This document shows, one piece after another, positions 3,586-56,187 of a stretch of DNA of 64,000 nucleotides. Position numbers and translations under genes: made by a program. The DNA is from a virus: positions 1-64,000 of the IMG/VR virus record IMGVR_UViG_3300029882_000012, one strand, 5' to 3'. Every line of letters begins with the position of its first letter. Position 1 is the stretch's first letter. The notes under the pieces were generated by a model. It was not told where the DNA came from and made no database searches. It saw only the letters and a program-made list of their open reading frames with translations.

Positions 3586-3588
3586 GGT

Positions 3589-4050: not shown

Positions 4051-4055
4051 GACAA

Positions 4056-4412: not shown

Positions 4413-4435
4413 GGCTATGTTTTGGTAATGTGATT

Positions 4436-4720
4436 TTATATAACTGCGTATAAGTCGGATTCTCTCATTATTAAATATTGGTCTCCCTCAATATCAATTT
4501 CTTGTCCTGAAAACTTCCCGTAAAGAACCCTATCACCAACCTGAACTATTAGTGGTAAAATTGTATTGGTTGTTTCAGAACGTTTGCCGTCCCCTATGGC
4601 TACTACCGTCCCAATGACTGATGATTCTTGGGCTGTTTCTGGAATGTAAATCCCGCTTTTTGTTTTAGTTACAATTTCGTCAGGTTGAACAATTATTCGG
4701 TCATGAAGTGGTTTTATCAT
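4436..4720 (-). CDS. groES: co-chaperonin GroES
   Basis: 94 aa; 'IKPLHDRIIVQP...KTKSGIYIPETAQE...GTVVAIGDG...VGDRVLYGKFSGQEI' is GroES along its whole length. Confidence 0.9.
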   Translation of the reverse strand: MIKPLHDRIIVQPDEIVTKTKSGIYIPETAQESSVIGTVVAIGDGKRSETTNTILPLIVQVGDRVLYGKFSGQEIDIEGDQYLIMRESDLYAVI

Positions 4721-4727
4721 TTTGTTT

Positions 4728-5228
4728 TTATTTATAGTGTAGGTTAATAAAGTTATCTATGTTTTCGCTTAAAAGTAGATGGGCGTTGGCTCTTACTTTT
4801 TCATCAGTCCAATCCCACCATTTTATTTGTAAAAGCTTTTCAATTTGTTCGGGATTGAATCGGAATCCTATTGAGCGATGATTGCCGACTATTATTTCAT
4901 AAGGCTTAACATCTTTGGTTACAATTCCACGCATCCCGATTATTGCACCGTCACCTATTGTTACACCCGACATAATTACGCATTGCTCTCCACACCAAAA
5001 GTCATTTCCAATTACCACATCACCTTTAATTTTAAGGTTTAATGGTAAATGCGAGCATCCAGCCATGTTAGCTTGAAATGGATAGGTTGAAACGTTCTTA
5101 TAGTTGTGACTGAAACCTGAATCAATTAATGTATTTTCTCCAAAACTTCCATACTTTCCGATGGTGACATTATTATGATTGCCCCTTAAAATAGGATTAC
5201 CATATGTATATGCTCCAATACTTAGCAT
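4728..5228 (-). CDS. hexapeptide-repeat (LbH) acetyltransferase, xenobiotic/CatB-like
   Basis: Repeats 'VVIGNDFWCGEQCVIMSGVTIGDGAIIGMRGIVTKDVKPYEIIVGN'. Confidence 0.8.
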   Translation of the reverse strand: MLSIGAYTYGNPILRGNHNNVTIGKYGSFGENTLIDSGFSHNYKNVSTYPFQANMAGCSHLPLNLKIKGDVVIGNDFWCGEQCVIMSGVTIGDGAIIGMRGIVTKDVKPYEIIVGNHRSIGFRFNPEQIEKLLQIKWWDWTDEKVRANAHLLLSENIDNFINLHYK

Positions 5229-5231
5229 ACC

Positions 5232-5420
5232 CTATTTTTTAATTTTCGTAAGGTTATCAAAAGCCACTCCAACATTTTTCATTGCATTTTTTTTCTCAAC
5301 CTCTGTGCCGTTGAAGTGCTTGTTTAACTGGCTTACTATTTCTTTGTGGTTGTGGTTTACGGCCATTTCTTCATCCGTTAAAGGCTTTTTTTCGATAGCT
5401 TGTTCTTTTTGCTTTGTCAT
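5232..5420 (-). CDS. hypothetical protein
   Basis: Track ORF, tightly packed; no motif recognised. Confidence 0.45.
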   Translation of the reverse strand: MTKQKEQAIEKKPLTDEEMAVNHNHKEIVSQLNKHFNGTEVEKKNAMKNVGVAFDNLTKIKK

Positions 5421-5422
5421 GA

Positions 5423-5974
5423 TTATTTATATTGATTTCTTATTTGTTCGCATTTTTCAGGTGAATGCCATTTGTCGATTGCGTGATAACCAAGTGAACC
5501 TAATCCCCAAATGGTCTCAACACTAAACTTTTTTGCCGTTTCAATATCGGGCAATTTACCGTTTAATTGTTGTAATCCCTGTGTGAAAAAAATGTCCTCA
5601 TTAACGCTGCCATCGTAAGATATGTGATTAATCACTCTCAACATGGCTTTTGTATCTCTTAAACTTAATCCCCCGTTCATTGCCGGGAATGGTATATGGT
5701 AAAGCGGTGCGCCAATAAAGTCATAATCTAAAAATGCCTCAATCCCTTGCTTTAACAGCATTGCATCTGACTGAAATATCAATACCTTTTCTGCGGGCAA
5801 GTTTCGCCAAAGACGCTTTGAACATAATAAACGGTTGTATTCTGCTGCCGTTGTTGTCGCTTCGTTCTTGATCCAATAAACTTCACATCCTTTGGGCAAA
5901 AACTCTTCAAATTGGGCTATTATTGGCTCAATCCCGGGTCTATTATCAATTATTACCGCTGCAAAAACTGTCAT
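5423..5974 (-). CDS. DUF5672-like protein (glycosyltransferase-associated family)
   Basis: 'VLIFQSDAMLL...DFIGAP...GGLSLR' pattern recalled from DUF5672; not verified by search. Confidence 0.4.
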   Translation of the reverse strand: MTVFAAVIIDNRPGIEPIIAQFEEFLPKGCEVYWIKNEATTTAAEYNRLLCSKRLWRNLPAEKVLIFQSDAMLLKQGIEAFLDYDFIGAPLYHIPFPAMNGGLSLRDTKAMLRVINHISYDGSVNEDIFFTQGLQQLNGKLPDIETAKKFSVETIWGLGSLGYHAIDKWHSPEKCEQIRNQYK

Positions 5975-6300
5975 TACTTTTTACATCTACATTTTATCGC
6001 ATCAAACATTATCAACTCAATTTCTCCGCTACCACCACATACAGGGCATTTAGGTTTATTCACCCATGTTAAGTTTTCAATCTTATTGTTGATAGGTCTC
6101 TTGCTATGAGATAAATATTCAAACTGCTCTTGTGATAGTTCGCTTACTTCTTCAATATAATCGCCTACTGTTGGTGGATTGTTCTCCCAGTACAAATCAC
6201 AAATAGGTTTTATGTTCTTTTCGGGGATAAACCTACCAGTTATTTTGCTTACATAAACATTTCCTGATTTTTCAATATGTGGTGGTAAACGAAGTTCCAT
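5974..6300 (-). CDS. small protein with DnaJ-type CxxCxGxG zinc-finger motif
   Basis: C-terminal 'CPVCGGSGEIE...CRC'. Confidence 0.5.
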   Translation of the reverse strand: MELRLPPHIEKSGNVYVSKITGRFIPEKNIKPICDLYWENNPPTVGDYIEEVSELSQEQFEYLSHSKRPINNKIENLTWVNKPKCPVCGGSGEIELIMFDAIKCRCKK

Positions 6301-6304
6301 TGGG

Positions 6305-7051
6305 TTACATTATTACTTCTTTTTGAAAGTTGGGGTGCTGTTTGAGTAATAAAGGTAATTCATTTTTATCAAAAGATACGGCATTCCACAAATCATGGGA
6401 AACTAAGTGCAACCCCTTGTCTATTGTCATTCCCGGTTCCCATCTTAGATAAACATCGTTTAACCAATTAGGGCGAATTTCAACTTTATGTCCGTGAATT
6501 TCCAATTTATATTTCATTATATCAAGACGTTGGGCTGTACTGAAATGGTATATCCTACATTTGGCTGACCCCTGACCATCAATCCTATGAAGATTAATAA
6601 ATCTTATTGGTTCAAACCCATCGTAGCAACACCAATTGAATGATTTAAAAAAATTGATATATCCACTTACGCCAATATATCTTTTATCACTTACCATTGC
6701 TGTTTCAATAAATGATGCTATATCGGCTGGTTCGAGTATTTCATCTGCATCAAAAGTAAGAATTCCATCAAAGTTTTCCTCTTGTGCAATTTTATAAATT
6801 AATCCTCTGTGCTGATTTTCGGCATAGGCTTGTATATTATGCCATTGTACCTTATTGGATGCTGACAGTGCAATGTCCCTTAATTCATCTTCACTATCTG
6901 GACAAACTAATTGTGTATTATAACCGTAAGATGGTTTCGATGTGTAAAGCATTACTATCTTTTCAACAAATGGTTCGACGGCCTTTATAGCTTCTGAAAG
7001 GTACTCAATTCCGTAATGTAGGGGACAATATGCAATGATTCTGTTACTCAT
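6305..7051 (-). CDS. family 2-like (GT-A) glycosyltransferase
   Basis: 'IIAYCPLHYGIEYLSEAIKAV...', acidic 'FDADEI' (DxD-like). Confidence 0.6.
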   Translation of the reverse strand: MSNRIIAYCPLHYGIEYLSEAIKAVEPFVEKIVMLYTSKPSYGYNTQLVCPDSEDELRDIALSASNKVQWHNIQAYAENQHRGLIYKIAQEENFDGILTFDADEILEPADIASFIETAMVSDKRYIGVSGYINFFKSFNWCCYDGFEPIRFINLHRIDGQGSAKCRIYHFSTAQRLDIMKYKLEIHGHKVEIRPNWLNDVYLRWEPGMTIDKGLHLVSHDLWNAVSFDKNELPLLLKQHPNFQKEVIM

Positions 7052-7060
7052 AAATTCATT

Positions 7061-7261
7061 TTAAAATATTTTCAATTGCGCCAACCTCAAAGCCATTGCC
7101 GTCTGTGATACATCAAATGTTTTCGCTAATTGCTTTAACGCTTCATCGGATGTTAAATCAAACGTTATTTTTTTAACCTCTTGTTTTACTAAATGTGCAG
7201 GCATCAACAAACACATGGCAAAATAATTGGCTTCGGCTTCTGATATATTATCTTTTCTCAT
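7061..7261 (-). CDS. ImmA/IrrE-like fragment (C-terminal part only, possible remnant)
   Basis: 'EAEANYFAMCLLMPAHLV' matches the conserved E-x-x-AN-x-FA-x-x-LLMP block, but no HExxH is upstream; 66 aa; 14-nt overlap with the GT gene. Confidence 0.45.
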   Translation of the reverse strand: MRKDNISEAEANYFAMCLLMPAHLVKQEVKKITFDLTSDEALKQLAKTFDVSQTAMALRLAQLKIF

Positions 7262-8132
7262 AAAGTTCCTTAATTGCCAATGCCATGTGTTTAAATGTGT
7301 GATTGTTTAATGCTAATTCATGCCCACATTTTGCAATATCTTCTCTCGCTCTTTCGGCATCTAATATTTTATCAATCCAATATTTTAAGTTGTCAATATC
7401 CGTCCAATAAATAACGGTTGATGGGTCAAAGTCTTCGGTAACGCCTTTATATCCATGTGTTAAAACACAAGTACCGCTAAGCAGCATCCGAAACATTCTA
7501 TCACTTGTATAACGTTCGTAATCGAAGTGACTTAAATTAATGCCTATTTTAGCCCGTCTGTACATATCGGCTTCATCCTTTTGATTGTTTAATGAGCCGT
7601 CTGGCTGTCCAGAACCGAAAGCTTTAAACCTATCACCATAAACCCTTTTAAGTTCACGTACCATATCAACACGCATTCTACTCAATGGAAAATGTCCGAA
7701 TGTATTTCCGCAAAAAACTATATCAACATCTTTAGTTACATTACTATCGGGATGATAAATCATTTCGTCCGCACCAATTTGTAAGTATTCGGCATTATAC
7801 CCTAATGATTTTAATGTTTTAACATCATTCATGTTACTGAAACAAGTTAAATCAACGTATTTAGCATATTCAAAATAACACGGGGGAATAACCGCACGTA
7901 CATCGCCACTCCAGTTTATTACAAAACAACCTATATTTTTTAAATGTTGCAGAGCCTGTGATGATATGCCACTGTCTTGTGGCTGCAAAAAGGCAATGTC
8001 ACCCGATTTTAGCCCCATGATGCCATTATTTACATCTTTCATAGGAATATCTACGAATTCATCACAAACACTTCTCACAGCGTCTGTAAATCCATTTTTT
8101 CCTCCCATAACTCCAGCGTAGATGATTTTCAT
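7248..8132 (-). CDS. CgeB/GT1-like glycosyltransferase
   Basis: C-terminal half resembles the Glyco_trans_1_2/CgeB pattern ('IGINLSH...YTSDRMFRMLLSGTCVLT...'). Confidence 0.5.
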   Translation of the reverse strand: MKIIYAGVMGGKNGFTDAVRSVCDEFVDIPMKDVNNGIMGLKSGDIAFLQPQDSGISSQALQHLKNIGCFVINWSGDVRAVIPPCYFEYAKYVDLTCFSNMNDVKTLKSLGYNAEYLQIGADEMIYHPDSNVTKDVDIVFCGNTFGHFPLSRMRVDMVRELKRVYGDRFKAFGSGQPDGSLNNQKDEADMYRRAKIGINLSHFDYERYTSDRMFRMLLSGTCVLTHGYKGVTEDFDPSTVIYWTDIDNLKYWIDKILDAERAREDIAKCGHELALNNHTFKHMALAIKELYEKR

Positions 8133-8134
8133 GG

Positions 8135-8494
8135 TTAACCTATTAATGAGATTGGTCTATTATCGTTTAATGGTCTGATTTCTTTTCTATCCCAACCGTA
8201 AGGCTTTATTCCGCTATCGCCAAAATCCGGAATTCCTTTTACGCTGCATGATAATCCCAATATTTTAATTAATTCCCATCTTCTATCATCCGAATCGCTA
8301 TACTCTTTTTGTGAGTTTAAATAATTCTCATATACTGTCGGTCTTACGTGATAAATATAACCGTTTTCTTCCCGTCCAATATTATCAGAATATTCCCGTC
8401 TATATGCCAATTCAAACCTCATTGCATTTTCTTCCAATCGTGGCAATATTTCGATTAGTCTACGAAGTTCAGCCAATTGTTGTTCTCTTTGCAT
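8135..8494 (-). CDS. hypothetical protein
   Basis: Track ORF, tightly packed; no motif recognised. Confidence 0.55.
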   Translation of the reverse strand: MQREQQLAELRRLIEILPRLEENAMRFELAYRREYSDNIGREENGYIYHVRPTVYENYLNSQKEYSDSDDRRWELIKILGLSCSVKGIPDFGDSGIKPYGWDRKEIRPLNDNRPISLIG

Positions 8495-8832
8495 TATTTT
8501 ATTTTTAAAGGTTTAATTCTTTTATCAGCGTTCTCAATCCACCCGATTGCCAGCTTATTGATTTTTATATTCCATGTATCATGGTCAATTTCACCGCCTA
8601 TGTACGGAAAAAACTCTTTCTTTCCTATGCCGATTGCCTTTTTAAATTCGTCGTTAACATCAATGTCGGCATACACCACACCATTTTCCTTTCGCAATAT
8701 AGCCATTCCAATAGGTTCATCACTTTCAAAAGTTGCGGTTATTTTGATAGGCGTTATGAATGTTGCTGTCTTAATCAAGACATCATTGTGGGTAAATCCC
8801 TCGATGAACACAACGGAGTTTAAGATTTTCAT
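8494..8832 (-). CDS. hypothetical protein
   Basis: Track start 8883 is TTG; first ATG is at 8832 (MKILNSVV...). Confidence 0.5.
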   Translation of the reverse strand: MKILNSVVFIEGFTHNDVLIKTATFITPIKITATFESDEPIGMAILRKENGVVYADIDVNDEFKKAIGIGKKEFFPYIGGEIDHDTWNIKINKLAIGWIENADKRIKPLKIK

Positions 8833-8948
8833 TAGTGTATTATTTTGAAGATATGAACGATAATAATTGCGGTTACAATGCAAGCCCCAATCACATATAC
8901 ATAGGGCATTATGATTTCTTGTATTTTTCGGATAGTGGTTTCATATTA

Positions 8949-9542
8949 TCAATATGTGTGGTTTAACCGTAAATATGGTGGATTAATTCTTTTGGTTCCG
9001 TCATAGCTTTTTTCTCCTTTATGTAAATGATGAGATTTAATGGTTAAGCATGGATTTGACATTTCATATCCCATTTTTCTCAACTCATAATTCAGTCTAT
9101 TGTCGCACCCAGGAATTTGATGATAATCACAATAGCTTGGAATTTTTATTATTCCCTTAAAAATCCAAGCATCTTGACTATCGATTTGATTAAGCAATAT
9201 TCCATTTTCATATCTTGTAATGGAAAAGCATTGATTGATCCCCGGTAATAAATTTAATGCCTCAAAATAAATATCACTATTTGATACAACATTAATATCA
9301 TCATAATTTGTTACCGCATTAACGGCATTAAAAAATGTTCTAAACGTTGGCCTAATTGTTACAGGTAAAACATTTACGTTTGTCGGCAAACCTTCCAACA
9401 CCCATTCTGCCAACTCACCACCTTCAGCCAACACCCAAACAATATCAAATACTTTGCAATTTCTTAAAAGACATTCCTTTAATTCGGATTGCCTTTTTTT
9501 ATTTTGTTCGTTGTAAAGGCTTATGAATAAGTTTGTGGTCAT
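8949..9542 (-). CDS. hypothetical protein, possible GT-A-like glycosyltransferase
   Basis: 'SLYNEQNKKRQSELKECLLRN...RPTF...SNSDIYF...SQDAWIF...GCDNRL...HHLH' pattern; weak recall only. Confidence 0.35.
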   Translation of the reverse strand: MTTNLFISLYNEQNKKRQSELKECLLRNCKVFDIVWVLAEGGELAEWVLEGLPTNVNVLPVTIRPTFRTFFNAVNAVTNYDDINVVSNSDIYFEALNLLPGINQCFSITRYENGILLNQIDSQDAWIFKGIIKIPSYCDYHQIPGCDNRLNYELRKMGYEMSNPCLTIKSHHLHKGEKSYDGTKRINPPYLRLNHTY

Positions 9543-39350: not shown

Positions 39351-39527
39351 ATGGAAAGAGTAACCGAACAAAAGAAAGCGTGTTTATGGATGATACATCA
39401 CTATATGGACTTAGCAGAGCAATCCTGGGACTTATACGATAACTTAGAAGATTATTATTTAGTATATGACCATTATATGGTTGCAGTTGATTTTTGGGAA
39501 GCTAAATTAGAATTACTTTGCGAATGA
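39351..39527 (+). CDS. small hypothetical protein (58 aa)
   Basis: MERVTEQKKACLWMIHHYMDLAEQSWDLYDN...; ATGA overlap with the HNH gene. Confidence 0.4.
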   Translation: MERVTEQKKACLWMIHHYMDLAEQSWDLYDNLEDYYLVYDHYMVAVDFWEAKLELLCE

Positions 39528-39877
39528 AATTAACAGGATATTCGAGTGCAAAAAAGGGCAGAAGGTTTAAGACGCAAATTCAGCCTAAAATAGAGATTGA
39601 ATATAAATGCTGTTATTGCGAAACAGCATTAAATAAAGGCAACATCAGTAAAGAACATTTTTGGCCTAAAAGGTTAGGCGGTAAAGGGAAGTCATTTAAT
39701 CACGAAAATATACACCCATGTTGTAATATTTGCAATCAAGAGAAAGGCGGTGATACCCCTTTGGATTATATTAAATACCTATATTCTCAAATTGGTAAAG
39801 TTGATGGTATATTATTAGCTACTAAAATTAATAATGTTCAAAATATTTGCGGTGTTGTTTATGAGAAGATTCGTTAA
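39524..39877 (+). CDS. HNH endonuclease
   Basis: 'CCYCETAL...SKEHFWPKRLGG...NIHPCCNICNQEKG'. Confidence 0.8.
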   Translation: MKLTGYSSAKKGRRFKTQIQPKIEIEYKCCYCETALNKGNISKEHFWPKRLGGKGKSFNHENIHPCCNICNQEKGGDTPLDYIKYLYSQIGKVDGILLATKINNVQNICGVVYEKIR

Positions 39878-40750: not shown

Positions 40751-40906
40751 TTACGGAATTATATTACTCGCATTATAGTTAGTCGACGTTTCATCCCAGC
40801 CGTCTAACCAGTCTTTATGTTGTTGCGTGCCTTTAGGATATGGGCAACTCCCACGACCTTTGTTTTCGTTAAAGGCGGCTTGTCCTTCGGTGTATTCCTT
40901 GCTCAT
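40751..40906 (-). CDS. Rmf/CrpP-fold small protein (51 aa)
   Basis: MSKEYTEGQAAFNENKGRGSCPYPKGTQQHKDWLDGWDETS...; aligns with the E. coli RMF core G-x-Q-A-G...CPY...W-L-G-G-W-x-E; ATGA overlap with the endolysin. Confidence 0.5.
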   Translation of the reverse strand: MSKEYTEGQAAFNENKGRGSCPYPKGTQQHKDWLDGWDETSTNYNASNIIP

Positions 40907-41361
40907 GATAAATATAAGTTAAGTTCTTTAGTCCTGCGTGCTAATAAATCGGTATTAATTTTACCTCCCGCGTGAGACCAGGCAAGCCAAGCCTCTTTTA
41001 ACGGTAGTCCAATAACCGAAGCATTTACCAACCTATGCACCGTAGAGCCTTTAAACCCACCCGCTCCTATGTTATAGGTCAAGCTAACAAGGGCATTAAA
41101 TTGATTTTGCGTTAAGTCGTCCCTGGTTGTTGAGTATACGGCTAATTCAAATGGTTTTAGCAATTGCAGAAACATACTATCAGCTTGTGCCTGTGTAATT
41201 GGTGGGTCTTGCATGGTTACTTTTTTGCCAGTCGATGGATAATAGGTCATACCATAGCCCAGAGTTGGAATACCAACTTGATCTTTGTATGGATGAAGTA
41301 TGCACCCCTCAAAGCCCTCAATTAACTTTAACCCTGCTTCGTCTATGCTTGTAATTTCCAT
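40903..41361 (-). CDS. GH24 (T4-type) lysozyme / endolysin
   Basis: 'GLKLIEGFEGCILHPYKDQVGIPTLGYG' with the catalytic E/D/T pattern. Confidence 0.85.
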   Translation of the reverse strand: MEITSIDEAGLKLIEGFEGCILHPYKDQVGIPTLGYGMTYYPSTGKKVTMQDPPITQAQADSMFLQLLKPFELAVYSTTRDDLTQNQFNALVSLTYNIGAGGFKGSTVHRLVNASVIGLPLKEAWLAWSHAGGKINTDLLARRTKELNLYLS

Positions 41362-41852
41362 GTCTGTTTTCTTTTTACCCTACCGATTGTTTCGGCGCAA
41401 ACACCGTAATCGTTAGCTATTAACATATAACTTCTTTTATCAGCTAATATATTAATAATATCCGACTCTTTAAATTTTGTGTTGTGATGTTGCTCACCAT
41501 AACTAATTGGAGGCTTTGAGTTTCTATTTTTACTTATACAATCTTGTATATTTTCTAATTGAGTGCCTGTTGATAAATGATAGGGGTTAACACATTTTGG
41601 ATTGTCGCATGAGTGAAGTAAATTGTCTTGATCATTCATAGCACACCCTATGTGTAATGAATAAGATAGTCTATGTGCTTTTATAATAACTCCCCTGCCT
41701 GAAAATAAATGTCCATAACCGTGCTCATTGTGTTGCTTTGAGTTCCACTCCCAACAATCATGATTGCTTAGTTTATTAGTATATTTCCAAAATCTAATTG
41801 TTATATTATTTAACCGTTTTTTGTCATTAAATAAATCTGCCATTTTACCCAT
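41343..41852 (-). CDS. HNH homing endonuclease
   Basis: 'CWEWNS...GYGHL...AHRLSY...LLHSCDNPKCVNPYHL' HNH_3-type; first ATG at 41852. Confidence 0.75.
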   Translation of the reverse strand: MGKMADLFNDKKRLNNITIRFWKYTNKLSNHDCWEWNSKQHNEHGYGHLFSGRGVIIKAHRLSYSLHIGCAMNDQDNLLHSCDNPKCVNPYHLSTGTQLENIQDCISKNRNSKPPISYGEQHHNTKFKESDIINILADKRSYMLIANDYGVCAETIGRVKRKQTWKLQA

Positions 41853-41968
41853 ACTCAAATATACTACAATTGGTTTAGAATGACAAAATTTACATTTTAT
41901 TTCCTAAAATCAAAAAAGATGTTTAGGTTTGTGGTGTGGCAATAGTGCCATGTAAGCAACCACACTTC

Positions 41969-42927: not shown

Positions 42928-43008
42928 CCTCACCCCAAAATACCAACAGCCGAACCAAAAGAGGATTAGGAATGCGAAGAATATGGCGATAGCGTAGGCG
43001 GGTTTCAT
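42925..43008 (-). CDS. hydrophobic micro-protein (27 aa)
   Basis: MKPAYAIAIFFAFLILFWFGCWYFGVR; ATGA overlap with the upstream gene stop. Confidence 0.35.
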   Translation of the reverse strand: MKPAYAIAIFFAFLILFWFGCWYFGVR

Positions 43009-43766
43009 TGCCATTTAACCGTTAAAGGATTAAAGCCCAAATTACTAACCAACTGCGCCAAAGTTACAACTCTTTTAGCTGTTACCATCTGCGTTTCGGT
43101 CTGCAAATTGGGCATCCAATAGCAGGTGGTTACACCGTTACAAATAACTATCTTCCAATAGTAAGCGGGAATTGTTTCACCGTCAATAACCCCCTGTGAC
43201 CCAAAACAACCGCCGTATTGCTCAACATCGGCAGCCTTAACTAATTTACGCTCGGAATTCTCCGTATTAATTTCTGTCCCCACGTTTTGTCCTTGCATTT
43301 CCATTGCGGCATTATAGGTGTACGTATCGCTTAATATAGCGGCATCAGCGCAAAAACTATTCATGATCCAGCAGTTAACATGACCTTTGGCTATCTCGCC
43401 TTTACCGGCTTTATTTGCATCCGTATAGGCTTTGCTTTCGTTATCAATTCCGTTTGCGCCATGCCATGCTGCATAAATGCCTGTACGGCTTACTGCATTC
43501 TCTTTTTCGCCTTTATGAAATAGCTCATAAGTAACCAATGGCATGTGTGCTGCGGTGTCGGCAATTGACTTATAATATGGGTTTATCCATACTTTGCATG
43601 AATTGCAAAATACACTTTTGTGAGTTGAATATTTGGCGTATAGTTGTTTTACATAGGCAGCGTTTATCGTCTGTCCACTCGCAACCTGCGTACACCCATC
43701 AAACAAGCAAATCCCTATTACAGTCGCCCATCCTATAGTGGCGTAAATATAGTTTCGTGTTCTCAT
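43005..43766 (-). CDS. secreted or membrane-anchored protein, function unknown
   Basis: N-terminal hydrophobic 'IYATIGWATVIGICLFDGC'. Confidence 0.5.
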   Translation of the reverse strand: MRTRNYIYATIGWATVIGICLFDGCTQVASGQTINAAYVKQLYAKYSTHKSVFCNSCKVWINPYYKSIADTAAHMPLVTYELFHKGEKENAVSRTGIYAAWHGANGIDNESKAYTDANKAGKGEIAKGHVNCWIMNSFCADAAILSDTYTYNAAMEMQGQNVGTEINTENSERKLVKAADVEQYGGCFGSQGVIDGETIPAYYWKIVICNGVTTCYWMPNLQTETQMVTAKRVVTLAQLVSNLGFNPLTVKWQ

Positions 43767-44492: not shown

Positions 44493-44807
44493 TTATTTAT
44501 CTTTATCCTTATTTTTTTTCAACTCCAGTAAGTTGCGGTACACTTCCCAACTATCAATAAGCCATGAGATCATGCGTGTTATTTGTTGATAGCCAACGAT
44601 TGATGTTAATCCAATCCCGAATAATGCAATCCCAACCCGTAAATAGCGTAACGCAGTAACAAAATCAGGTTTAAAAAAATCAGCTACCCAATCCCAACCA
44701 GTTATGTAAACCACTATAAACATAGACACCGCTATTCCAGCAAGCCACTTTTGAAAGTAGGTTGCATTTACTATGAATTTCGGCTCTTCCGGAATAGGTT
44801 TTGTCAT
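44493..44807 (-). CDS. two-TM membrane protein
   Basis: 'LAGIAVSMFIVVYITGW' and 'VGIALFGIGLTSIVGY'. Confidence 0.5.
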   Translation of the reverse strand: MTKPIPEEPKFIVNATYFQKWLAGIAVSMFIVVYITGWDWVADFFKPDFVTALRYLRVGIALFGIGLTSIVGYQQITRMISWLIDSWEVYRNLLELKKNKDKDK

Positions 44808-45400
44808 TAGTCATTGGCGATACTTCTGTATAATTTTGTTATACGTTTAAATTGAATTTTATTGTATATAAACAAGCCTAACATACCTAACCACAATACT
44901 CCACCACCAATAAGCAATATACGTATTAAGCTGTTTAAATCTCCTATTTGCAATTTGTTCTGTTTAACGGCCTCTTTTTGTCTTTCATAAGTACCACGCT
45001 GATATTCTAATAATTGTGTCTGCTGTTTATTGTTTATGTCCCGCATGCTATCTGTTTTTCGTATAGACCGTTCACGAACATTACTTACTAAATCGGTTAA
45101 TTTCTGAATGCTGACAGCCTGATCCTGAATTGTTAAACTCAATCGTTTAAACTCAGGGGCAAACATAGAGTTAAAGTTTTCTTTGTAAAACCGCTGCAAA
45201 TACATTTGGTATTGTTCCGGTGTCATGTGTTTTTCAACCAATGTATCATGCTTAAAATTATTGATAATTGTAGGTTGCGGAATGTATACCGTATGGGTGG
45301 TTGCTAGTGATGGAGTTTTGCAACCTTGAAAGAACAACCCTAAACAAGTACCAAAACTAATGGCGAATATCGCAGGGATAAATATTTTATACTGATTCAT
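44807..45400 (-). CDS. lipobox plus C-terminal TM protein (unimolecular-spanin-like candidate)
   Basis: N-terminal 'IFAISFGTCLGLFFQGC', charged coiled middle, C-terminal 'ILLIGGGVLWLGMLGLFIY'. Confidence 0.4.
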   Translation of the reverse strand: MNQYKIFIPAIFAISFGTCLGLFFQGCKTPSLATTHTVYIPQPTIINNFKHDTLVEKHMTPEQYQMYLQRFYKENFNSMFAPEFKRLSLTIQDQAVSIQKLTDLVSNVRERSIRKTDSMRDINNKQQTQLLEYQRGTYERQKEAVKQNKLQIGDLNSLIRILLIGGGVLWLGMLGLFIYNKIQFKRITKLYRSIAND

Positions 45401-45743
45401 GCTTATGTCTGTAAATAATCATACCAATTAATGCAGAAATACAAATACTGCAACTAAAAAATAAATTTTCGTTCATCCATTCCATATTACTGCTTACCAA
45501 TCCCACTGAATAATACATTAAACAAAACACTTTGTATACTATTGCAAATGCTATATAACACATTTCCTTATCTGTTTTATTGATCTTAAAGTTAAACAAT
45601 AAACTGATAATATTAAATCCAATTGTCACGTACCAAAAATAAGGCGCAAATATAGTGGTATGTTGCAATAAGATGCACAGCGATGCTAATATGAAGTAGC
45701 ACACTATGCATCTTACGATCCAGCTTTTACGCTTCTTTATCAT
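45387..45743 (-). CDS. multi-TM membrane protein (holin candidate)
   Basis: Four hydrophobic segments in 118 aa. Confidence 0.45.
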   Translation of the reverse strand: MIKKRKSWIVRCIVCYFILASLCILLQHTTIFAPYFWYVTIGFNIISLLFNFKINKTDKEMCYIAFAIVYKVFCLMYYSVGLVSSNMEWMNENLFFSCSICISALIGMIIYRHKHESV

Positions 45744-45826
45744 GGGGTGATAGGTGGCGGGGGTGGTGGGTTAACGGGTCCACCCAAATCTGGTTTCACT
45801 ACTTTCGGTTTTTTAGTCTTTGCCAT
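45740..45826 (-). CDS. Pro-rich micro-protein (28 aa)
   Basis: MAKTKKPKVVKPDLGGPVNPPPPPPITP; ATGA overlap downstream. Confidence 0.3.
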   Translation of the reverse strand: MAKTKKPKVVKPDLGGPVNPPPPPPITP

Positions 45827-45849: not shown

Positions 45850-46368
45850 TTAATAATATTCAACTCCGGTAAGGTAACTTATAGTCGTAGTACCCGCGCT
45901 TGTACTTACCATCCTAACCAATGCGCCTACGGGAATAACTCCACATAGTACGCCGCTTTGTGTGTTTACAGACTGTAATACAACAGCAAGTGTTACAGTA
46001 TTTGAATTGGCTACTGTTGATTCAATTATCCAAGTACTTCCACTATTTGTGCTATATTGCAATGCCACGCTACCGCTTGATGTTGCCCCTATTGTGGCTG
46101 TGCAAGCAATAGATATGTTATAAAAAACGATTGCCGTTCTCGCTGTACTGACAGTAAACGTTGTGCTGTTAATGGGTCGCGTAATTCCACTATTCATAGT
46201 GGGAAGCATGGTAAGGTTGTTATAGTAGCCACTAATGGCTACTTGAGGGGTTTTTGTAGTAGCTATTTGAGTGTACCCTGCACTATCTACATAGTACATA
46301 TATCTTGTTTGAGCATTAATTGTTGCAGATATAAAAATAAAGGCGATAAGCGTGTATAGGTATTTCAT
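45850..46368 (-). CDS. signal-peptide-bearing Thr/Ser-rich protein in the fibre module
   Basis: 'MKYLYTLIAFIFISATINA|QT'. Confidence 0.5.
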   Translation of the reverse strand: MKYLYTLIAFIFISATINAQTRYMYYVDSAGYTQIATTKTPQVAISGYYNNLTMLPTMNSGITRPINSTTFTVSTARTAIVFYNISIACTATIGATSSGSVALQYSTNSGSTWIIESTVANSNTVTLAVVLQSVNTQSGVLCGVIPVGALVRMVSTSAGTTTISYLTGVEYY

Positions 46369-46373
46369 TTAAA

Positions 46374-48239
46374 TTAAAAGCCTTCTAAAATTATAAAACC
46401 CGTTGTGGTAGCACCTGTAATCGTAACTGATGTTGATGATATAGATGTTACAATACTTGATGACGGCCCGTTACCCGTCATTACTTCGGGGGTATTTGTA
46501 AACGCAGTCGGGAATGTGTATGATGCAGTTCCTAATAAAGCGGAGCAATACACTATAACTTTTTTATAAGAACTTCCCGAAAATGGTTGGCTGAATTTAG
46601 CCGTTCCACTTGTGCTGCCCGATACATTGGTTTGTGCTGCGGATGTATTTGTTCCTGCATCAATTTGGCTTGTTAAAGCTATTGTTCCTGTTAAATCGGG
46701 TAATGTGTAGGTATGTCCAGTTGTATACGTCCCCGCTAATATCTGTCCTGTATTACCAGCATTGGTAAAAATAACTGATCCGGTTTGCACAGTAATACTT
46801 CCACTAAATATTTGGAGTGGAACCCATGTATTTGTAGTATTGAACAAATCAAAATAAGTAGGAGCGGTTGCAATAGACCCGGTTCCTGTTGAAGATAAAA
46901 ATTGAGTTCTTGTTGTCGTATTACCACTTAACCGCGTAGGCGTTCCGCTTGTGCCACCATAAATAATGTCCCCGGCAGTTGTCATAGGGTTGGTTAGTAG
47001 ACCCGATATATCACTAATCATCGCAAACACATCCGTTCCAGTCCTGTTAGGCAACGATACCGTATAACCAGCACTTGGTGTTGTAGTCCCCGGTTGTATG
47101 GTTATAGCTGTCCCAACTGCCGTATTTACCAGTGCAAGTGAACCGTATGACAATGAAGTAAAATGGTTAACATCTATTGCACCGTTCACAATCTTATATG
47201 CAGCATTGCTTGTGTAAGTATATGACCCGCTTGACGACCCCGCCTGAAAAGCTGTTCCATTAAGTTGGCCCGGCCCTGATAATGTACCGCCGTTTAATGG
47301 CAGATAATAAGAGTTTACCCACGCTGTTGTCGGTATTTGTGTTGTGTTAATATTGCTACCGGGGGTTGGCGCTAATGGCGTTCCGGTGAATGTTGGGGAA
47401 GCAGAGAAAACTGCATTTCCTGTTCCGGTTTCATCTGATAAAGCCAAAGCAAGTGCCGATGAACTAAATGTTCCCGTTCCTACGTTAAAATAATTGGCAC
47501 TTCCGCTTGCAGGAGAATAATCTGTTACTGAACTTGCCGCTACAATAACTCCGCTCGAGTTTGTTTTCAATAATGTTGAAACAACTCCTGTGGTTTGCAA
47601 AGTGGGGGCAGCAAGTGTGCTTAAAACGCTAAAAACTCCCGCTTGAGTTAATGTTGCAGCGTTACCGGATGTAGAACCAAAATCCAAATTAACGGTTGGG
47701 GTTGCACCGGATGTTCCAACAGGGTATATATACCAATCTATATTATTATTAGAAGAAGATGTTGTATTCCATATTCTTGAAGAAAACCAAATAGACGGCC
47801 CATTTTGAACTGGAACGCTTGATGTTGCATTTGTACCATTATACATTTGCAATCCTATTGCGTGTTGAGTTGCTCCTGATCCTGCTATATTTATAAGTTG
47901 ATACACTGAAAACGTATTGCTGCGTGCTAATTGCGCCCAATATGTATTCCCTAATGGCTTAAAATTAGCTATGGTTTGTATGTGTGTAGTATCAACTGAA
48001 AATGTTGTGCTTGCTAAATTTAAGCCAAATCCGTTAGTATATGCCGCTCCGCCAGTAGCAGAAACGGTATAAGTAGGCCACGTTCCTGTAACTGTAACAT
48101 TTGTACCAGCAGAAACTGATGGTATTACCCCGCCTACCTGCAAACCGTTTGAAAAATTAGTAGGTGTAGTTTGGTTGAAATATGTTTGCGCGTGACAAAA
48201 CACGGGTACAAAAAGCAATATGAATAGTATCTTTCTCAT
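46374..48239 (-). CDS. tail-fibre-like protein with N-terminal Sec-type signal peptide
   Basis: '[17 protein letters not shown]|QT'; 621 aa, Gly/Ser/Thr-rich, in the fibre module. Confidence 0.5.
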
Positions 48240-49387
48240 TAATTCAATACATTTATAGCCCTGTAAAACACATCGCTTATTAACCAGTGCCCGGCATTAT
48301 TTGGATGAAGCCCCGTATCCTGACCATTTGGTTGTATTAATCCTGAATTTCTATCCATAGACTTGTAAACATCAGCAATACCAAGCCAAGGGAACTCCCT
48401 GAATAAAGAGCGTAGTTGTTGTTGTAGAATTGTATCGTATGCCAAATAACCATACATATAATTAGTACCGCTTCCCGCTGTTGACCCAGATGTTTGGCTT
48501 AACACCTGTTTAAAATATGGCGCAATCCATCCCGGAGTAGCCGCTACAACATTTACAAAATTACCGGTCGTAGTGCCCGAAACGGCGGTTGAATCACTAA
48601 TAAAATTCAATGTAGTCCGTATATTCTTTACTACCTGTGACGGAAATTCAAAGTATTTATTATAGTACACATCGTTTATACCAAACATAAAAGTAAAAAT
48701 ACTCGGAACGGTTGCTGTTGAAGTGGTTAGTAATGTTACTGCCTGATCAAAGAATGAAGCTAAATTGATAGTTGGTGTAGTTATTGTTCCTGATCCGGAA
48801 ACACCAACATTATTAAGTAGATAATCAACCCCATTATTTTCAAAAAGTGCCCGTTGTAACAGATTTGTATAACGTACGTTGGTTTCTAATGAGCCGGTTC
48901 CAAAAGTCCATGAATCACCCGCACATCCCAGCGTCCTGTAACCACCGCTTAATCCTGGTACTAACTTGTTATTATCAACCCAAAAAGCAGTATTAATATA
49001 TAATGATGTGCCAGTACCACCTAATGAGTTTGTACCTTGTATAACTGTTGTATGAGAGCCGTTAGTTAGCCCGCGTTCAATAGCAACCGGAACTCTTAAA
49101 TACATAGGCGGCACTATTGATTTGTCGGAATTACAAGTTTGTATTGAGTTTCTGGTCACTCCATCCGTAGTTACTGTAAAGTCAGCGCCATTTTGCCCAG
49201 TTCCAATGTACATATATAGATCTGTTCCAAACCATGTATGTGTAAATTTATCACCTAAAACAGATGTGGCATTATATGCCCCGTTAGATGCACCAATATC
49301 AGAAACAGGTGCCCATGAACCTGCACCACTGCCAGCCGAATTGGTAAATGAAAATGAAGCATCTGTAAATTGTTTGACTGTTATCAT
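48239..49387 (-). CDS. SGNH/GDSL hydrolase-domain tail-associated protein
   Basis: Block I 'CAGDSWTFG', block V '[11 protein letters not shown]' (DxxH). Confidence 0.7.
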
Positions 49388-49390
49388 GTT

Positions 49391-49873
49391 TTATGAGAAT
49401 AAATGTAATTCAATTGAAATGTTACCACCTGTGAATGCACCACTTGTCAAGCTGATCCCCACACGTATGCTATCCCATAATGGTTTTTGAAATATTATAG
49501 ACCCTAATACAGCAAAACCTATAGGAGATGATGGTATTGAACCTACTGTATACGGGTTGCCCGTCCAAGGCAATGTAAAATAGTTTTGCATACGTGGCGA
49601 CAATCCCTGTACGGTGACTATTAGTCCTGTCGGAGCGGAGGTGTATGTTAACCCCTCGCTTACCACCGACAATATCATACTTTCGTATTCTGATAAATCA
49701 AGTTCGGGTAGTCCGTACTGTATCGTGGATGTTAAAGATGCCCCCGTTAGTTGAGTGGGGATTGCAATGTCAACCTTACGCCTAATTTTGGCATCAATAA
49801 TACCATAATGCTCCACTACAAGTGGATTCTTAGGGTCATTTTGGTTTACTACGAATATCGGGGTTAATGCCAT
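49391..49873 (-). CDS. hypothetical tail-module protein
   Basis: Track ORF, position only. Confidence 0.5.
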   Translation of the reverse strand: MALTPIFVVNQNDPKNPLVVEHYGIIDAKIRRKVDIAIPTQLTGASLTSTIQYGLPELDLSEYESMILSVVSEGLTYTSAPTGLIVTVQGLSPRMQNYFTLPWTGNPYTVGSIPSSPIGFAVLGSIIFQKPLWDSIRVGISLTSGAFTGGNISIELHLFS

Positions 49874-49877
49874 ATCT

Positions 49878-51197
49878 TTATTGTGCTGCTGTTCTTACAA
49901 AGAATAATTTACTGCCTGTTGAATTATTATAACTGTATGTATAAATAGTAGTTGCATAACTTCCGTCCGGGTTTGTACCCCCATTTACTTCATCGTTCTT
50001 AACCACAACCAATAATGTGTTTGATCCGGTAAAATAAGTTGATGCCGTTGCGTAATTTGCGGCATATAATATCTGCAATCCAATTGGTGCTGTTGGTGTT
50101 GGGCTTGTGGCAGAGGCATAAGTAACATGAATGGCATCCCCTGAATTTAAAGCATTTGCAAACGTTAAAGCCCCTGTTGAACCGTTTACTAAAGTCTGAT
50201 TCCCATTCGGAGAACCTGTTGTGATTTTTTGAAATTCTAAACCCTGCCTGTTTATAGAAGTAACCACCATGTTTATTATACTGCTTATGGTTATACTTGT
50301 TCCTTCTGAACCTGTTGCGGTGTAATAATAGTTTTGCGGAGCGTATGATGAGGCTATGGATGTTACTGCTCCCACAGGCAAATCATCACTTAAAACCGTC
50401 CATATTCCCGAATTGTATTGTAATAGCAACCCTTGATTAACATAAGACAGCGTAAGTGTTGTTGATCCGCCTGTTTTGTTAAAAACGTCACTTCCTGATG
50501 TTGTTATTGAAGTTACATTCCCGCCACCCAATGTAATCATCTTAACTAATATCAACGTACCATTTACAGGTGCATTTGGCAGTGTTATAGGAACGTTTCC
50601 GCTTGTTGTATTAGTATATACCAAATCTTGTGCTGATGCTGTGTAAGCGGCTGTTTTAACTGCTGTCGGCACGAGTTGTTTATAGTAGAATGTAGCGTAA
50701 TCTGCTGATTGTGGAACAACAGCCCCTATTCTTGTATTAAAAGACGTTACGCCTCCCGTTCCAACCAATGATCTTACAAACGCATTCGTAGAAATGGTAT
50801 CGGTAATATTCATAGGCACATACAATATGTGATTGCCTGATGCTTGGCTCGTTGCCTTGAATGCGGTGGAAGCATTACCTAATGAGTTTTCAAAATTAAG
50901 TGTAGTACCATATTCAAATAAATACAATCCACTTGTTAAATTTTGTATGCCTGTAATTGTATTCCCCCCATTTAGTAACTGATACAAACCAAACGTACTT
51001 GCTCTAATGTTCTGCTTAACAAATTTAGTAGTAGCGAATTTAGCCGAACTATCGGCATTTAATAATGTCCCCGTTAAGAATGCGCTATCCTTAACCGAAA
51101 TATATTTTTGGAATAGATAAGGTTGAGAGATAATCACAGGACTTTGAGCTTTCACCAAAATCGGAAATAACAAAAATAAAAACAATAATCTTTTCAT
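49878..51197 (-). CDS. tail-fibre-like protein with N-terminal Sec-type signal peptide
   Basis: 'MKRLLFLFLLFPILVKA|QS'; 439 aa, Thr/Ser/Gly-rich. Confidence 0.5.
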   Translation of the reverse strand: MKRLLFLFLLFPILVKAQSPVIISQPYLFQKYISVKDSAFLTGTLLNADSSAKFATTKFVKQNIRASTFGLYQLLNGGNTITGIQNLTSGLYLFEYGTTLNFENSLGNASTAFKATSQASGNHILYVPMNITDTISTNAFVRSLVGTGGVTSFNTRIGAVVPQSADYATFYYKQLVPTAVKTAAYTASAQDLVYTNTTSGNVPITLPNAPVNGTLILVKMITLGGGNVTSITTSGSDVFNKTGGSTTLTLSYVNQGLLLQYNSGIWTVLSDDLPVGAVTSIASSYAPQNYYYTATGSEGTSITISSIINMVVTSINRQGLEFQKITTGSPNGNQTLVNGSTGALTFANALNSGDAIHVTYASATSPTPTAPIGLQILYAANYATASTYFTGSNTLLVVVKNDEVNGGTNPDGSYATTIYTYSYNNSTGSKLFFVRTAAQ

Positions 51198-51198
51198 T

Positions 51199-52221
51199 TT
51201 ATACTAATCTTATTACTTCATAAAGGGCTGTAGATGATTGCATCATATTAAGTGCCGTATTTGGCGATCCTGCGTTGACATCTTCGGGTGCTGTGGTTGC
51301 AACAGGCACAGTAGCATATCCATTTTGACCCGTACCGGAAGTTGCTGCAAATTTTGAGCGTGTTTCCAATTGCGGAATGTTATTTGGCGTTAATTGATAT
51401 GAATTAGCCCCATAGGAATTTCCATCTGAAAATGTATGAGACCCCGCATCAGTTCCTTGTCCTATGAATGTTTGTCCCGCTGTATTTGGGGCTGTGTGGC
51501 CACCCGCAACTGCTGTACCCGTTGTTAATGCCCATCTTTCGCCTGTTAATGAATTATACCAAGGATAAACTATTCCTAATCCTGTTCCATCAAAATTTGA
51601 ATCGAATGTGCCTAAAATATCTCTTACAAATACAATGCTGCCTACGGTTGATGGTGCTCTTTGTAAAAGCAATGCGTTTACTTGGGATTGCGTATATGTT
51701 TGGTCGGCTGTTAAAACTTCACCAGTTCCAGTTCCTAAATTAGCCTGTGCCGCCGTACCATAGGTGTTTATTTGGGCAATAACATCCAATAATTGATTTT
51801 GGAGATATTTATTATTTATTCTATAACTGTTCATATCCCCCGTGAATTGTGGGGTATTTCCAGTCGGAGTGCTTGTGCTTGTGGCTATTTGATTTGTATA
51901 AATATTACGGGCGTTTGTATCGTCGAACGTTTCTAATAGCACATCAACATAAGATGTGGCTAAATAAAGCCCTTCGTTAAATGCATTTGCTGAATAAAAA
52001 AAATCTCCGTTAAAATAAATTAGACCCGGAGAATAGGTATTTGGAGTGCCTAAAATATAATCAAGACCCCCGATAATTCGAAAGTCACCTGAATCACAAC
52101 CCGAAAGTAATAAAAGTGCTGATAATGCGTTTTGGTCGGCAACCTGAATATCCCCTAAAAATAAAGGATTATCAATGCCCGGATATAATTTTCTTAACGT
52201 AGGAAAAACTGGATTACTCAT
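51199..52221 (-). CDS. tail fibre protein with phage tail-collar-like C-terminal domain
   Basis: 'GERWALTTGTAVAGGHTAPNTAGQTFIGQGTD...SYQLTPNNIPQ' resembles the tail-collar pattern. Confidence 0.5.
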   Translation of the reverse strand: MSNPVFPTLRKLYPGIDNPLFLGDIQVADQNALSALLLLSGCDSGDFRIIGGLDYILGTPNTYSPGLIYFNGDFFYSANAFNEGLYLATSYVDVLLETFDDTNARNIYTNQIATSTSTPTGNTPQFTGDMNSYRINNKYLQNQLLDVIAQINTYGTAAQANLGTGTGEVLTADQTYTQSQVNALLLQRAPSTVGSIVFVRDILGTFDSNFDGTGLGIVYPWYNSLTGERWALTTGTAVAGGHTAPNTAGQTFIGQGTDAGSHTFSDGNSYGANSYQLTPNNIPQLETRSKFAATSGTGQNGYATVPVATTAPEDVNAGSPNTALNMMQSSTALYEVIRLV

Positions 52222-55586: not shown

Positions 55587-56187
55587 ATGGATACAAATAT
55601 AGAAGAAAAACCCGCTTATATAAGTAGGGAAGAAAAAATAGGGATTACTCAAGAATTCTTAAAAGCAACATTCGATTATAAAGATGGATTTTTTTATTGG
55701 AAAATAAGTCTTAACACCAGTATAAAAATTGGGGATTTGGCTGGATGTTTCCACAAAAGTACTGGAAGATATAGAGTAATTATAAATGGAAATGGTTATC
55801 ATGTTTCGAGATTAGTTTTTTGCTATCAGAACGGTTATTTCCCTCAATATATCGACCATATAGATAGAAATAGGGCTAATGATAAAATTGAAAATTTAAG
55901 ACCCGCCACTTGGGTTGAAAATTCCAGAAATAAAACACCCACAAAAAATCAAACATCAAAATATCGTGGTGTTTCTTTGAAGTACTACTTATTCAAGATA
56001 TGTAAATAAACAAGGAAAGGTATCTAATAATATTTGTCGTAGATGGTCAAGCAGAATTTACATTGGGAAAGGAAAAGGAATTGGATTGGGTAGATTTCTA
56101 ACTGAAAAAGAAGCAGCCATTGCATATAATGAAGCGGCTAAAAAATATTTTGGAGAATTCGCTTATATAAATCCCATTGAAGATTAG
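55587..56187 (+). pseudogene. HNH-AP2 homing endonuclease, AP2 domain displaced by a frameshift
   Basis: Frame A 'YIDHIDRNRANDKIENLRPATWVENSRN...YRGVSL' stops at 56009; the +1 frame continues 'RRWSSRIYIGKGKGIGLGRFLTEKEAAIAYNEAAKKYFGEFA' to 56187 with no start of its own. Confidence 0.7.

Follow-up and report, generated by a model that had tools for sequence, protein, structure and literature searches.

Tail-fibre-block proteins with predicted Sec signal peptides and Bacteroidota-type cleavage sites in uncultured phages

The window analyzed here is a 64,000-nucleotide stretch of viral DNA (positions 1 to 64,000 of IMG/VR record IMGVR_UViG_3300029882_000012), which has a G+C content (GC) of 33–41% in 2-kb windows and is part of a 94-kb contig present in several metagenome and sequencing-run assemblies from ENA, JGI and Logan. 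Its tail-fibre block contains three open reading frames (ORFs) on the minus strand, encoding proteins of 172, 621 and 439 amino acids (aa), whose N-termini have the layout of Sec signal peptides (SPs). A reading of the DNA alone, hereafter the sequence-only reading, had described these as canonical SPs ending in the A↓Q site typical of Bacteroidota (the arrow marks the predicted cut), carried by fibre-type proteins inside a tail module, where export is unexpected for virions assembled in the cytoplasm. The coordinates of the three ORFs were confirmed, and the description was borne out both for the SPs and, by domain matches and gene order, for the placement of fibre-type proteins in the tail module. 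The genes and their principal parts are listed below.

45850..46368, minus strand: 172-aa mini-fibre with an SP, a short stalk and a TNF/C1q-like head; last gene before the lysis cassette (sequence, AlphaFold2, Foldseek)
46312..46368, minus strand: predicted SP of the 172-aa protein, residues 1–19, MKYLYTLIAFIFISATINA↓QT, predicted cut INA↓Q (sequence, rule-based test; kept through the family)
45853..46191, minus strand: predicted TNF/C1q-like jelly-roll head of the 172-aa protein, residues 60–172 (AlphaFold2 and Foldseek)
46374..48239, minus strand: 621-aa fibre-like protein with an SP; its start overlaps the stop codon of the SGNH gene (TAATG) (sequence)
48189..48239, minus strand: predicted SP of the 621-aa protein, residues 1–17, predicted cut CHA↓Q (sequence, rule-based test)
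46377..46625, minus strand: C-terminal domain of about 83 aa of the 621-aa protein, common to other SP-bearing fibre-block proteins (matches of 75% and 54% identity)
49878..51197, minus strand: 439-aa fibre-block protein with a Sec/signal peptidase I SP (sequence; 32 homologues of the central module)
51147..51197, minus strand: predicted SP of the 439-aa protein, residues 1–17, MKRLLFLFLLFPILVKA↓QS, predicted cut VKA↓Q (sequence, rule-based test)
50373..50687, minus strand: conserved module of about 105 aa, residues 171–275 of the 439-aa protein (LVPTAVKTAAYTA...GSDVFNKTGGST...IWTVLSDDLP), with a predicted gp10/TSP4-XD-like docking fold (AlphaFold2, Foldseek)

The N-terminus of the 172-aa protein reads MK-YLYTLIAFIFISA-TINA↓QT, that of the 439-aa protein MKR-LLFLFLLFPIL-VKA↓QS (MKR-LLFLFLLFPILVKA↓QS), and that of the 621-aa protein consists of 17 residues followed by ↓QT. 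In all three, an n-region of MK, MRK or MKR (1–2 positive charges) is followed by an uncharged hydrophobic h-region of 11–13 residues and by a c-region in which position −3 is small or aliphatic and the predicted cut falls between Ala (−1) and Gln (+1). The features of Sec/signal peptidase I (SPI) substrates, namely a positive n-region, an h-region of 7–15 residues, no acidic residue before the cut, agreement with the −3/−1 rule and, for Bacteroidota, Gln at +1, were found in 3/3 proteins. SPs were called with a purpose-written rule-based test that required a positive n-region, an uncharged hydrophobic 9-mer, small or aliphatic residues at −3/−1, and [AGSC]↓Q. Four of the 129 non-overlapping ORFs of the window pass this test, against 0.075 expected when residues 2–41 are shuffled, and the passing ORFs are concentrated in the fibre block (3/6 genes in 45850–52221 vs 1/123 elsewhere; Fisher p = 2e-4). 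The fourth is an Endonuclease_NS protein (43005–43766), which serves as an internal positive control for the pattern because its family is classically secreted. As the sequence-only reading had stated, inspection found no SP-type N-terminus in the neighbouring 340-aa fibre, the baseplate proteins or the SGNH protein, nor in the 160-aa protein of the block.

All three genes start with ATG, situated 5 nucleotides (172 aa), 0 nucleotides (621 aa) and 1 nucleotide (439 aa) after the upstream stop codon. No upstream in-frame start was found for any of them, and the first 120 codons of the 621- and 439-aa genes contain no alternative ATG; in the 172-aa gene, codon 24 is an ATG. These positions speak against true starts beyond the hydrophobic segment, a possibility that the sequence-only reading had left for checking. 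A lipoprotein assignment (signal peptidase II) was rejected: the 172- and 439-aa proteins lack a Cys after the h-region, and Cys-15 of the 621-aa protein precedes HA↓Q and has no lipobox context. For the C-terminal sorting domain of the type IX secretion system (T9SS; TIGR04183/TIGR04131 types), the three proteins and four relatives gave no NCBIfam match at E ≤ 0.05, although divergent domains of this type may be conceivable.

The same arrangement recurs in other loci. Twenty further SP-bearing fibre-block proteins were identified in eight unrelated loci (L007, L009, L010, L012, L013, L035, L036 and that of P0031, a protein from a 2.2-kb contig), and all 20 have Gln at the assigned +1 position, which lies at residues 17–26, or at residue 45 in one protein with a long N-region; the total is thus 23/23 SP-bearing fibre-block proteins examined. 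The prophage L007, situated at one end of a 474-kb bacterial contig, encodes in this order a 303-aa fibre whose N-terminus is of the classical anchor-like type, a 685-aa SP protein, a small ORF and a GH108 lysin. In L009, six or seven consecutive SP- or transmembrane (TM)-bearing genes, two SGNH proteins among them, follow a gene for a 1537-aa protein; L010 has four consecutive SP genes, and in L012, where a 1241-aa protein of tape-measure size lies upstream, 2/6 distal genes encode SPs. The 674-aa SP protein of L013, a contig of a Bacteroidetes metagenome-assembled genome (MAG), contains K1-lyase_C (42.6 bits, above the cut-off); K1-lyase_C and BppL_N motifs are both present among the SP-bearing relatives. 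P0031 has a different N-terminal domain and retains the SP. Among the homologues of the 439-aa module, all five low-GC proteins have an SP with A, S or G at −1 and Q at +1, and the other 27, mostly high-GC, have none; in L014 (a Cytophagaceae MAG) the module lies on an SP-less 1124-aa fibre, so the trait is frequent rather than universal. Another protein with this module, of 1069 aa, is encoded at 7005–10214 of L022 (IMG/VR 3300038386_000079), a contig of 60% GC, and has an SP ending in AFA↓QT; Q-rule fibre proteins are therefore not confined to low-GC hosts. The SGNH-domain proteins of L009 and L010 carry SPs, unlike that of the window; orthology of the window protein with the SP-bearing SGNH protein of L010 was unsupported (BLASTP E 0.11), and the pair is therefore unusable as a case of SP gain or loss. 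Direct inspection of the cultured Bacteroides phage B40-8 and Flavobacterium phage FCL-2 found no SP-bearing tail proteins. The sole SP+Q protein of FCL-2 (L037) is a 147-aa ORF at 45363–45806 (MKTIVITLLLSISTYS↓QVGIATTTPTETLDVNG…), far from the tail genes.

Of 175 members examined in the family of the 172-aa protein, 106 have an SP with [AGSC]↓Q, 42 another hydrophobic N-terminus and 27 neither, so that about 85% carry an export signal. Many of the 42 have a later Q site; they also include P0082, P0085 and P0087, in which a charged N-region and a TM helix form a signal-anchor-like N-terminus, a second way to put the same domain outside the cytoplasm. The genomic context of P0094, an SP-less member, was uninformative. 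In L035 and L036, the 172-aa-type gene is the last of the fibre block and is followed by genes for small membrane proteins and a lysin. The architecture is split in L035 between two adjacent genes (7498–7995 and 8001–8477), one encoding a 165-aa SP protein that corresponds to the N-terminal stalk motif (YMDSLG…PQVAISGY) and the other a 158-aa protein in which a charged N-region and TM helix precede the TNF-like head.

A tblastn search also identified the head domain in the cultured Pseudomonas phages AF, AH02 and Orisa03, which have homologues of the 172-aa protein only among the three. The proteins AF_025 (AF gp25), AH02_17 and Orisa03_00038 have SPs with predicted cuts AFA↓G, CFA↓A and TMA↓A, respectively. 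Gln at +1 characterizes SPI substrates of Bacteroidetes (the Q-rule; PMC5837995), and a stabilizing role has been described for this residue (PMC10653852). Since +1 is Q in the Bacteroidota phages and G or A in the Pseudomonas phages, the residue tracks the host phylum as the Q-rule predicts, and this switch is probably the strongest computational evidence that the SPs are used and cleaved. Retention of Q at +1 together with the A↓G and A↓A switch therefore indicates selection on a real SPI site. The uncleaved N-terminal anchor that the sequence-only reading had entertained is disfavoured by the same data (Q at +1 in 23/23 fibre-block proteins and 106/175 family members). As far as sequence can tell, the export signals are genuine and well beyond chance; predicted SP-bearing fibre-type proteins are widespread in uncultured Bacteroidota phages, and the 172-aa family extends to cultured Pseudomonas phages.

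The bodies of the three proteins resemble parts of known receptor-binding proteins (RBPs). An AlphaFold2 model of the 172-aa protein, built with 26 homologues, has a mean predicted local distance difference test (pLDDT) score of 83.9, with values >90 over most of residues 60–172. The best Foldseek matches of this head in the Protein Data Bank (PDB) are the lambda tail tip (gpJ), the needle of cyanopodophage Pan3, Chlamydia Pgp3 and the TNF family; in the set of predicted viral structures, the head matches C-terminal parts of fibre or spike proteins, including a TSP1/Gp66-type protein of Erwinia phage phiEa2809. A profile search identified 2018 cluster representatives with the head domain (E ≤ 1e-3), always at the C-terminus, in proteins of 128–684 aa. 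The module of the 439-aa protein is common to 32 database proteins, several of which also have pectate-lyase, GDSL, collagen or other Pfam domains, and pLDDT exceeds 90 for residues 171–275 only. In the PDB, Foldseek matched it to the tailspike of Acinetobacter phage Solidus, the baseplate cup of Klebsiella phage KP1, residues 1–335 of CBA120 TSP4 and, weakly, T4 gp10. The solved relatives of this gp10/TSP4-like module tie tailspikes to one another and to the baseplate. For the 621-aa protein, no full-length homologue was found beyond copies of the same phage, and other matches were confined to short motifs in proteins of unknown function, two of which have Pfam DUF2793. Over its last 83 residues, identity is 75% with the C-terminus of P0038 and 54% with that of a 721-aa SGNH-fibre fusion in L009; such apparent mosaic domain exchange among SP-bearing proteins is typical of host-range proteins. 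With folds or homology shared with solved virion RBP modules (a gpJ-like head, a TSP4/KP1/Solidus-like module and, in L013, K1-lyase_C), all three are, judged by these matches and models, receptor-binding-type tail proteins built from virion RBP modules.

Along the minus strand, the order of genes begins with a 463-aa DUF2586 protein, a 144-aa ORF, the tape measure protein (PHROG matches) and the baseplate hub (phrog_4930), and continues with a run of small baseplate-region ORFs, the fibre block, membrane proteins, the exported nuclease and lysozyme. The fibre block is the distal end of the tail morphogenesis operon, immediately upstream of the lysis genes, and the three ORFs lie downstream of the baseplate genes, as expected for tail fibres. 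The other features of this region are as follows.

51199..52221, minus strand: 340-aa fibre or baseplate-periphery protein without an SP (weak Pfam Gp10_C match, E 0.013, below the cut-off)
49391..49873, minus strand: 160-aa protein without an SP and with no family match (ORF list, family searches, N-terminus)
48239..49387, minus strand: 382-aa SGNH/GDSL esterase-type protein without an SP, between two SP-bearing genes (Pfam Lipase_GDSL_2, 40.6 bits)
45387..45743, minus strand: 118-aa holin-like protein with three hydrophobic helices; its gene directly follows that of the 172-aa protein (same gene order in L036)
44807..45400, minus strand: 197-aa unimolecular-spanin-like protein with a lipoprotein-type N-terminus and a C-terminal TM helix (architecture only)
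43005..43766, minus strand: 253-aa Endonuclease_NS nuclease with a predicted export signal, …VASG↓QT (Pfam, 36.2 bits; rule-based SP+Q)
40903..41361, minus strand: Phage_lysozyme-type endolysin without an SP (Pfam match; tblastn to annotated endolysins)

Promoter and terminator matches in the block are at chance level, the promoter scan being of the sigma-70 type, which is unsuited to Bacteroidota. This and the gaps of 0–5 nucleotides between genes point to co-expression and translational coupling with the baseplate genes; a separate transcription unit was considered and rejected on the basis of the gene spacing and the chance-level promoter and terminator matches. The spanin-like protein has the architecture of T1 gp11, and a counterpart of 203 aa in L036 (9091–9702) shares both architecture and position; it is followed in the window and in L036 by a conserved TM protein of 104 and 102 aa, respectively (MTKPIPEEPKF…). 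The N-terminus of the Endonuclease_NS protein (43005–43766), whose gene adjoins the lysis genes, could alternatively be lipoprotein-like (…FDGC). An Endonuclease_NS gene lies beside the lysozyme gene in L009, too, and the window protein may be a periplasmic or released nuclease acting at or after lysis. No near relative of the window phage was found among 50,697 deposited phage genomes; against these records, megablast of the fibre block and tblastn of the 621-, 439- and 463-aa proteins gave nothing useful, and tblastn with the window endolysin matched annotated endolysins of Proteobacteria phages and others, with no Bacteroidota isolates.

Several known systems share part of this arrangement. 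In the CBA120 TSP1–4 and T4 gp10/gp11/gp12 assemblies, the likeness lies in the 439-aa module, which matches the TSP4 N-terminal region and, weakly, T4 gp10, in the weak Gp10_C match of the 340-aa protein, and in the position of the fibre genes after the baseplate genes; the known gp10-based proteins lack SPs and are assembled in the cytoplasm, whereas the window protein with the docking module starts with a predicted cleavable export signal. The TNF/C1q-like heads of the lambda gpJ C-terminus and of cyanophage short-fibre tips share the fold and C-terminal position of residues 60–172 of the 172-aa protein, but the family of the latter is mostly export-signalled, and the window protein, about 150 aa when mature, has no long shaft or recognized virion anchor. 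Chlamydia Pgp3 is a secreted trimer with a TNF-like C-terminal head; the match to it is in fold only (9–12% identity), and Pgp3 is plasmid-encoded and non-phage. In other phages, the adsorption module or its immediate neighbourhood encodes Sec-dependent proteins, namely T5 Llp, phi80/N15 Cor and lambda Lom, whose target is the envelope of the infected cell or lysogen. These small lipoproteins or outer membrane beta-barrels are unrelated to fibres and are often early or prophage-expressed, whereas the window proteins are of the SPI type, contain RBP modules and are coupled to late structural genes. Superinfection exclusion of the Llp/Cor type involves a small outer membrane lipoprotein that inactivates the receptor used by the phage itself, and the three ORFs encode modular SPI-type proteins of 172–621 aa; this lowers their membership in that class but not the possibility of an analogous role.

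A literature search found no description of SPs on tail-fibre proteins; papers on Hankyphage, a B. uniformis phage, rumen phages, RcGTA and Ab31 mention SPs in the methods, in passing or not at all. In P. gingivalis phages, Q-rule SPs were noted only on genes of unknown function, which were interpreted as adapted to the secretion system of the host (Matrishin et al. 2023, PMC10367356). Compared by description only, these are likewise genes of Bacteroidota phages with a predicted SPI cut exposing Gln. As far as the literature searches reach, SP-bearing fibre-type proteins are an undescribed phenomenon.

The following pathway could account for these observations. The precursors would be translocated by Sec and cut by SPI at A↓Q, and the new N-terminal Gln would be cyclized to pyroglutamate, as in exported proteins of the host. 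The mature proteins would then fold, presumably as trimers, and accumulate late in infection in the periplasm, whose soluble phase is the default destination until lysis because neither a lipobox nor a T9SS C-terminal domain was detected. In the three-step lysis model established for lambda, the inner membrane is opened by the holin, and the outer membrane gives way some seconds later. Since the window encodes holin-like, lysozyme and spanin-like proteins, an interval with an open inner and a still intact outer membrane is expected by analogy with lambda lysis; periplasm and cytoplasm would then mix inside the still-closed outer membrane. Virions and periplasmic fibres would share one closed compartment, and late docking is therefore physically possible: the exported fibres would dock on the periphery of the baseplate or otherwise be released with the burst. 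This course, in which the proteins meet virions only at lysis and which would be an unconventional route into the particle of the kind named in the sequence-only reading, is proposed tentatively and is given slightly less than even weight. It is favoured by the gp10/TSP4-like module of the 439-aa protein, the weak Gp10_C match of its upstream 340-aa neighbour and the coupling to baseplate genes, and we lean towards it for the 439- and 621-aa proteins, with less assurance for the 172-aa mini-fibre.

Several points weigh against late docking. No tailed phage is known to us to acquire fibres from the periplasm, and docking after lysis must compete with dilution. SP-less fibre or RBP candidates are encoded in the window (340 aa) and in L007 (303 aa), L012 (325 and 286 aa) and L036 (1046 aa), while in L009 and L010 just two small SP-less proteins of unknown role (165/166 and 261/271 aa) precede the SP-bearing genes; with such a candidate in most loci, most virions could be complete without the exported proteins. 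The homologue in phage AF lies downstream of the endolysin and Rz/Rz1 genes, apart from the tailspike, a position behind the lysis cassette that is typical of accessory genes. The three membrane-anchored-looking members of the 172-aa family do not fit incorporation into a particle, and the absence of SP-bearing tail proteins from B40-8 and FCL-2 indicates that the trait is lineage-specific. In addition, the SPs were called by our own rules rather than by SignalP or by experiment, and the 439-aa model is confident for residues 171–275 alone.

In the main rival explanation, which takes up the secreted decoys or adhesins of the sequence-only reading, the proteins would be exported but never enter the virion. 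As free or envelope-located RBPs, they could act in the periplasm or once released at lysis, masking or modifying receptors of the dying cell and of its debris, serving as decoys, agglutinating or priming neighbouring hosts, or helping dispersal. The evidence for export is the same as for late docking, and the SP-less fibre or RBP candidates in most loci, the signal-anchored variants P0082, P0085 and P0087 and the location of the AF homologue all suit free proteins. Precedents for such a role would be T5 Llp, phi80/N15 Cor and lambda Lom, which are exported and whose genes adjoin those for tail fibres, but these are small lipoproteins or outer membrane proteins, not modular fibres of 400–1000 aa. 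A comparable case would be the Endonuclease_NS protein that the phage also exports and that can act outside the cytoplasm only, and in the P. gingivalis phage survey Q-rule SP genes were interpreted as modifiers of the host surface (PMC10367356). Against free proteins stand the solved relatives of the 439-aa module, which dock tailspikes to each other and to the baseplate, and the coupling of the genes to structural genes, unlike morons with their own promoter and terminator; moreover, with no T9SS domain or lipid anchor the cell surface is unreachable before lysis, and receptor masking on an intact cell is hard to picture. Taken together, free exported proteins are somewhat less probable than late docking.

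It is improbable that there is no export at all, the hydrophobic N-terminus being a trimerization or baseplate-insertion helix, a transient membrane tether, a segment removed by a phage protease, or one upstream of the true start. Cytoplasmic virion assembly would agree with this, SignalP-type false positives are known on phage capsid proteins (PMC10367356), and the ATG at codon 24 of the 172-aa gene offers a later start. Yet the n-h-c layout, the −3/−1 site and Q at +1 are kept in dozens of N-termini that are unrelated in other respects, the +1 residue varies with host phylum, P0031 keeps the SP despite its different N-terminal domain, the start codons are placed as described above, and such sequences would engage Sec anyway. 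Very improbable, finally, is lysogenic conversion by moron genes, that is, a secreted adhesin or surface protein expressed from the prophage and located in the tail region by chance. The relative L007 does lie in a prophage on a bacterial contig, and lambda lom and bor are precedents; but gaps of 0–5 nucleotides leave no room for a promoter, no terminator lies between the genes, the SP pattern spans up to six or seven consecutive late genes in L009, and the domains are those of phage RBPs. No integrase or repressor was seen in the region inspected, the whole 94-kb genome not having been searched for them.

If late docking were general, many tailed phages would make part of their adsorption apparatus in a second compartment, through Sec export, periplasmic processing and addition after holin opening, a generalization that we regard as rather unlikely. 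The periplasmic processing would, in Bacteroidota, produce a pyroglutamate N-terminus and perhaps include O-glycosylation, and the proteins would possibly be pre-assembled in the periplasm as a branched complex via the gp10-like module; a two-compartment assembly pathway of this kind is undescribed for Caudoviricetes. Host range is decided by tail fibres and other RBPs, whose folding and attachment to the particle are assumed to be cytoplasmic. A large, conserved RBP-type class with export signals would mean either that the adsorption apparatus is finished outside the cytoplasm or that soluble fibre-related proteins are routinely released, and either outcome touches host-range prediction from genomes, the annotation of "tail fibres" in viromes, protein expression for engineering, and the interaction of Bacteroidota phages with the cell envelope. 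The question is answerable by routine virion proteomics and gene deletions because homologues of the 172-aa protein exist in cultured Pseudomonas phages.

An O-glycosylation sequon, D(S/T)(A/I/L/V/M/T), has been described in Bacteroidota (PMC8550257, PMC8729774). Within mature residues 1–45, it occurs in 16/23 SP-bearing fibre-block proteins against an expectation of 3.0 in local shuffles, the 23 proteins not being independent but representing perhaps five to ten families of N-terminal motifs; deeper in the same proteins it is not enriched (4 vs 3.3 and 4 vs 2.3 expected), and it occurs in 1/23 SP-less tail proteins of the same loci and in 2/27 SP-less high-GC homologues. In the window, D-S-A stands at mature position 9 of the 172-aa protein and at mature position 20 of the 439-aa protein, and the Pseudomonas homologues have D-T-A or D-S-I near the N-terminus. 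The N-proximal sequon would fit periplasmic glycosylation; because the Pseudomonas homologues carry the same motif, it is possibly a structural element for docking or trimerization.

The window also contains a sugar-modification-type gene cluster on the minus strand (1570–9542), including Glyco_trans_1_2 (7248–8132, 56 bits), DUF5672 (5423–5974, 102 bits), a hexapeptide-repeat transferase (4728–5228) and a weak GT2 match (1570–2211); its target could be DNA, polysaccharide or protein. In L010, a 45.6-kb phage contig, a 4112-aa protein (1–5334; Pfam WH_1, DUF8437, Helicase_dom) is encoded directly upstream of the tail-distal genes, and a 1297-aa AAA_34/Helicase_C_4 protein occupies the same relative position in L035; these large helicase-domain proteins may be packaged in the virion and injected. 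HNH-type endonuclease genes (HNH_3, HNH_5) are inserted among the late genes of the window at 41343–41858, 55587–56009 and 39518–39877 (plus strand; L001); one of these genes is in the opposite orientation and separates the baseplate genes from the hub gene.

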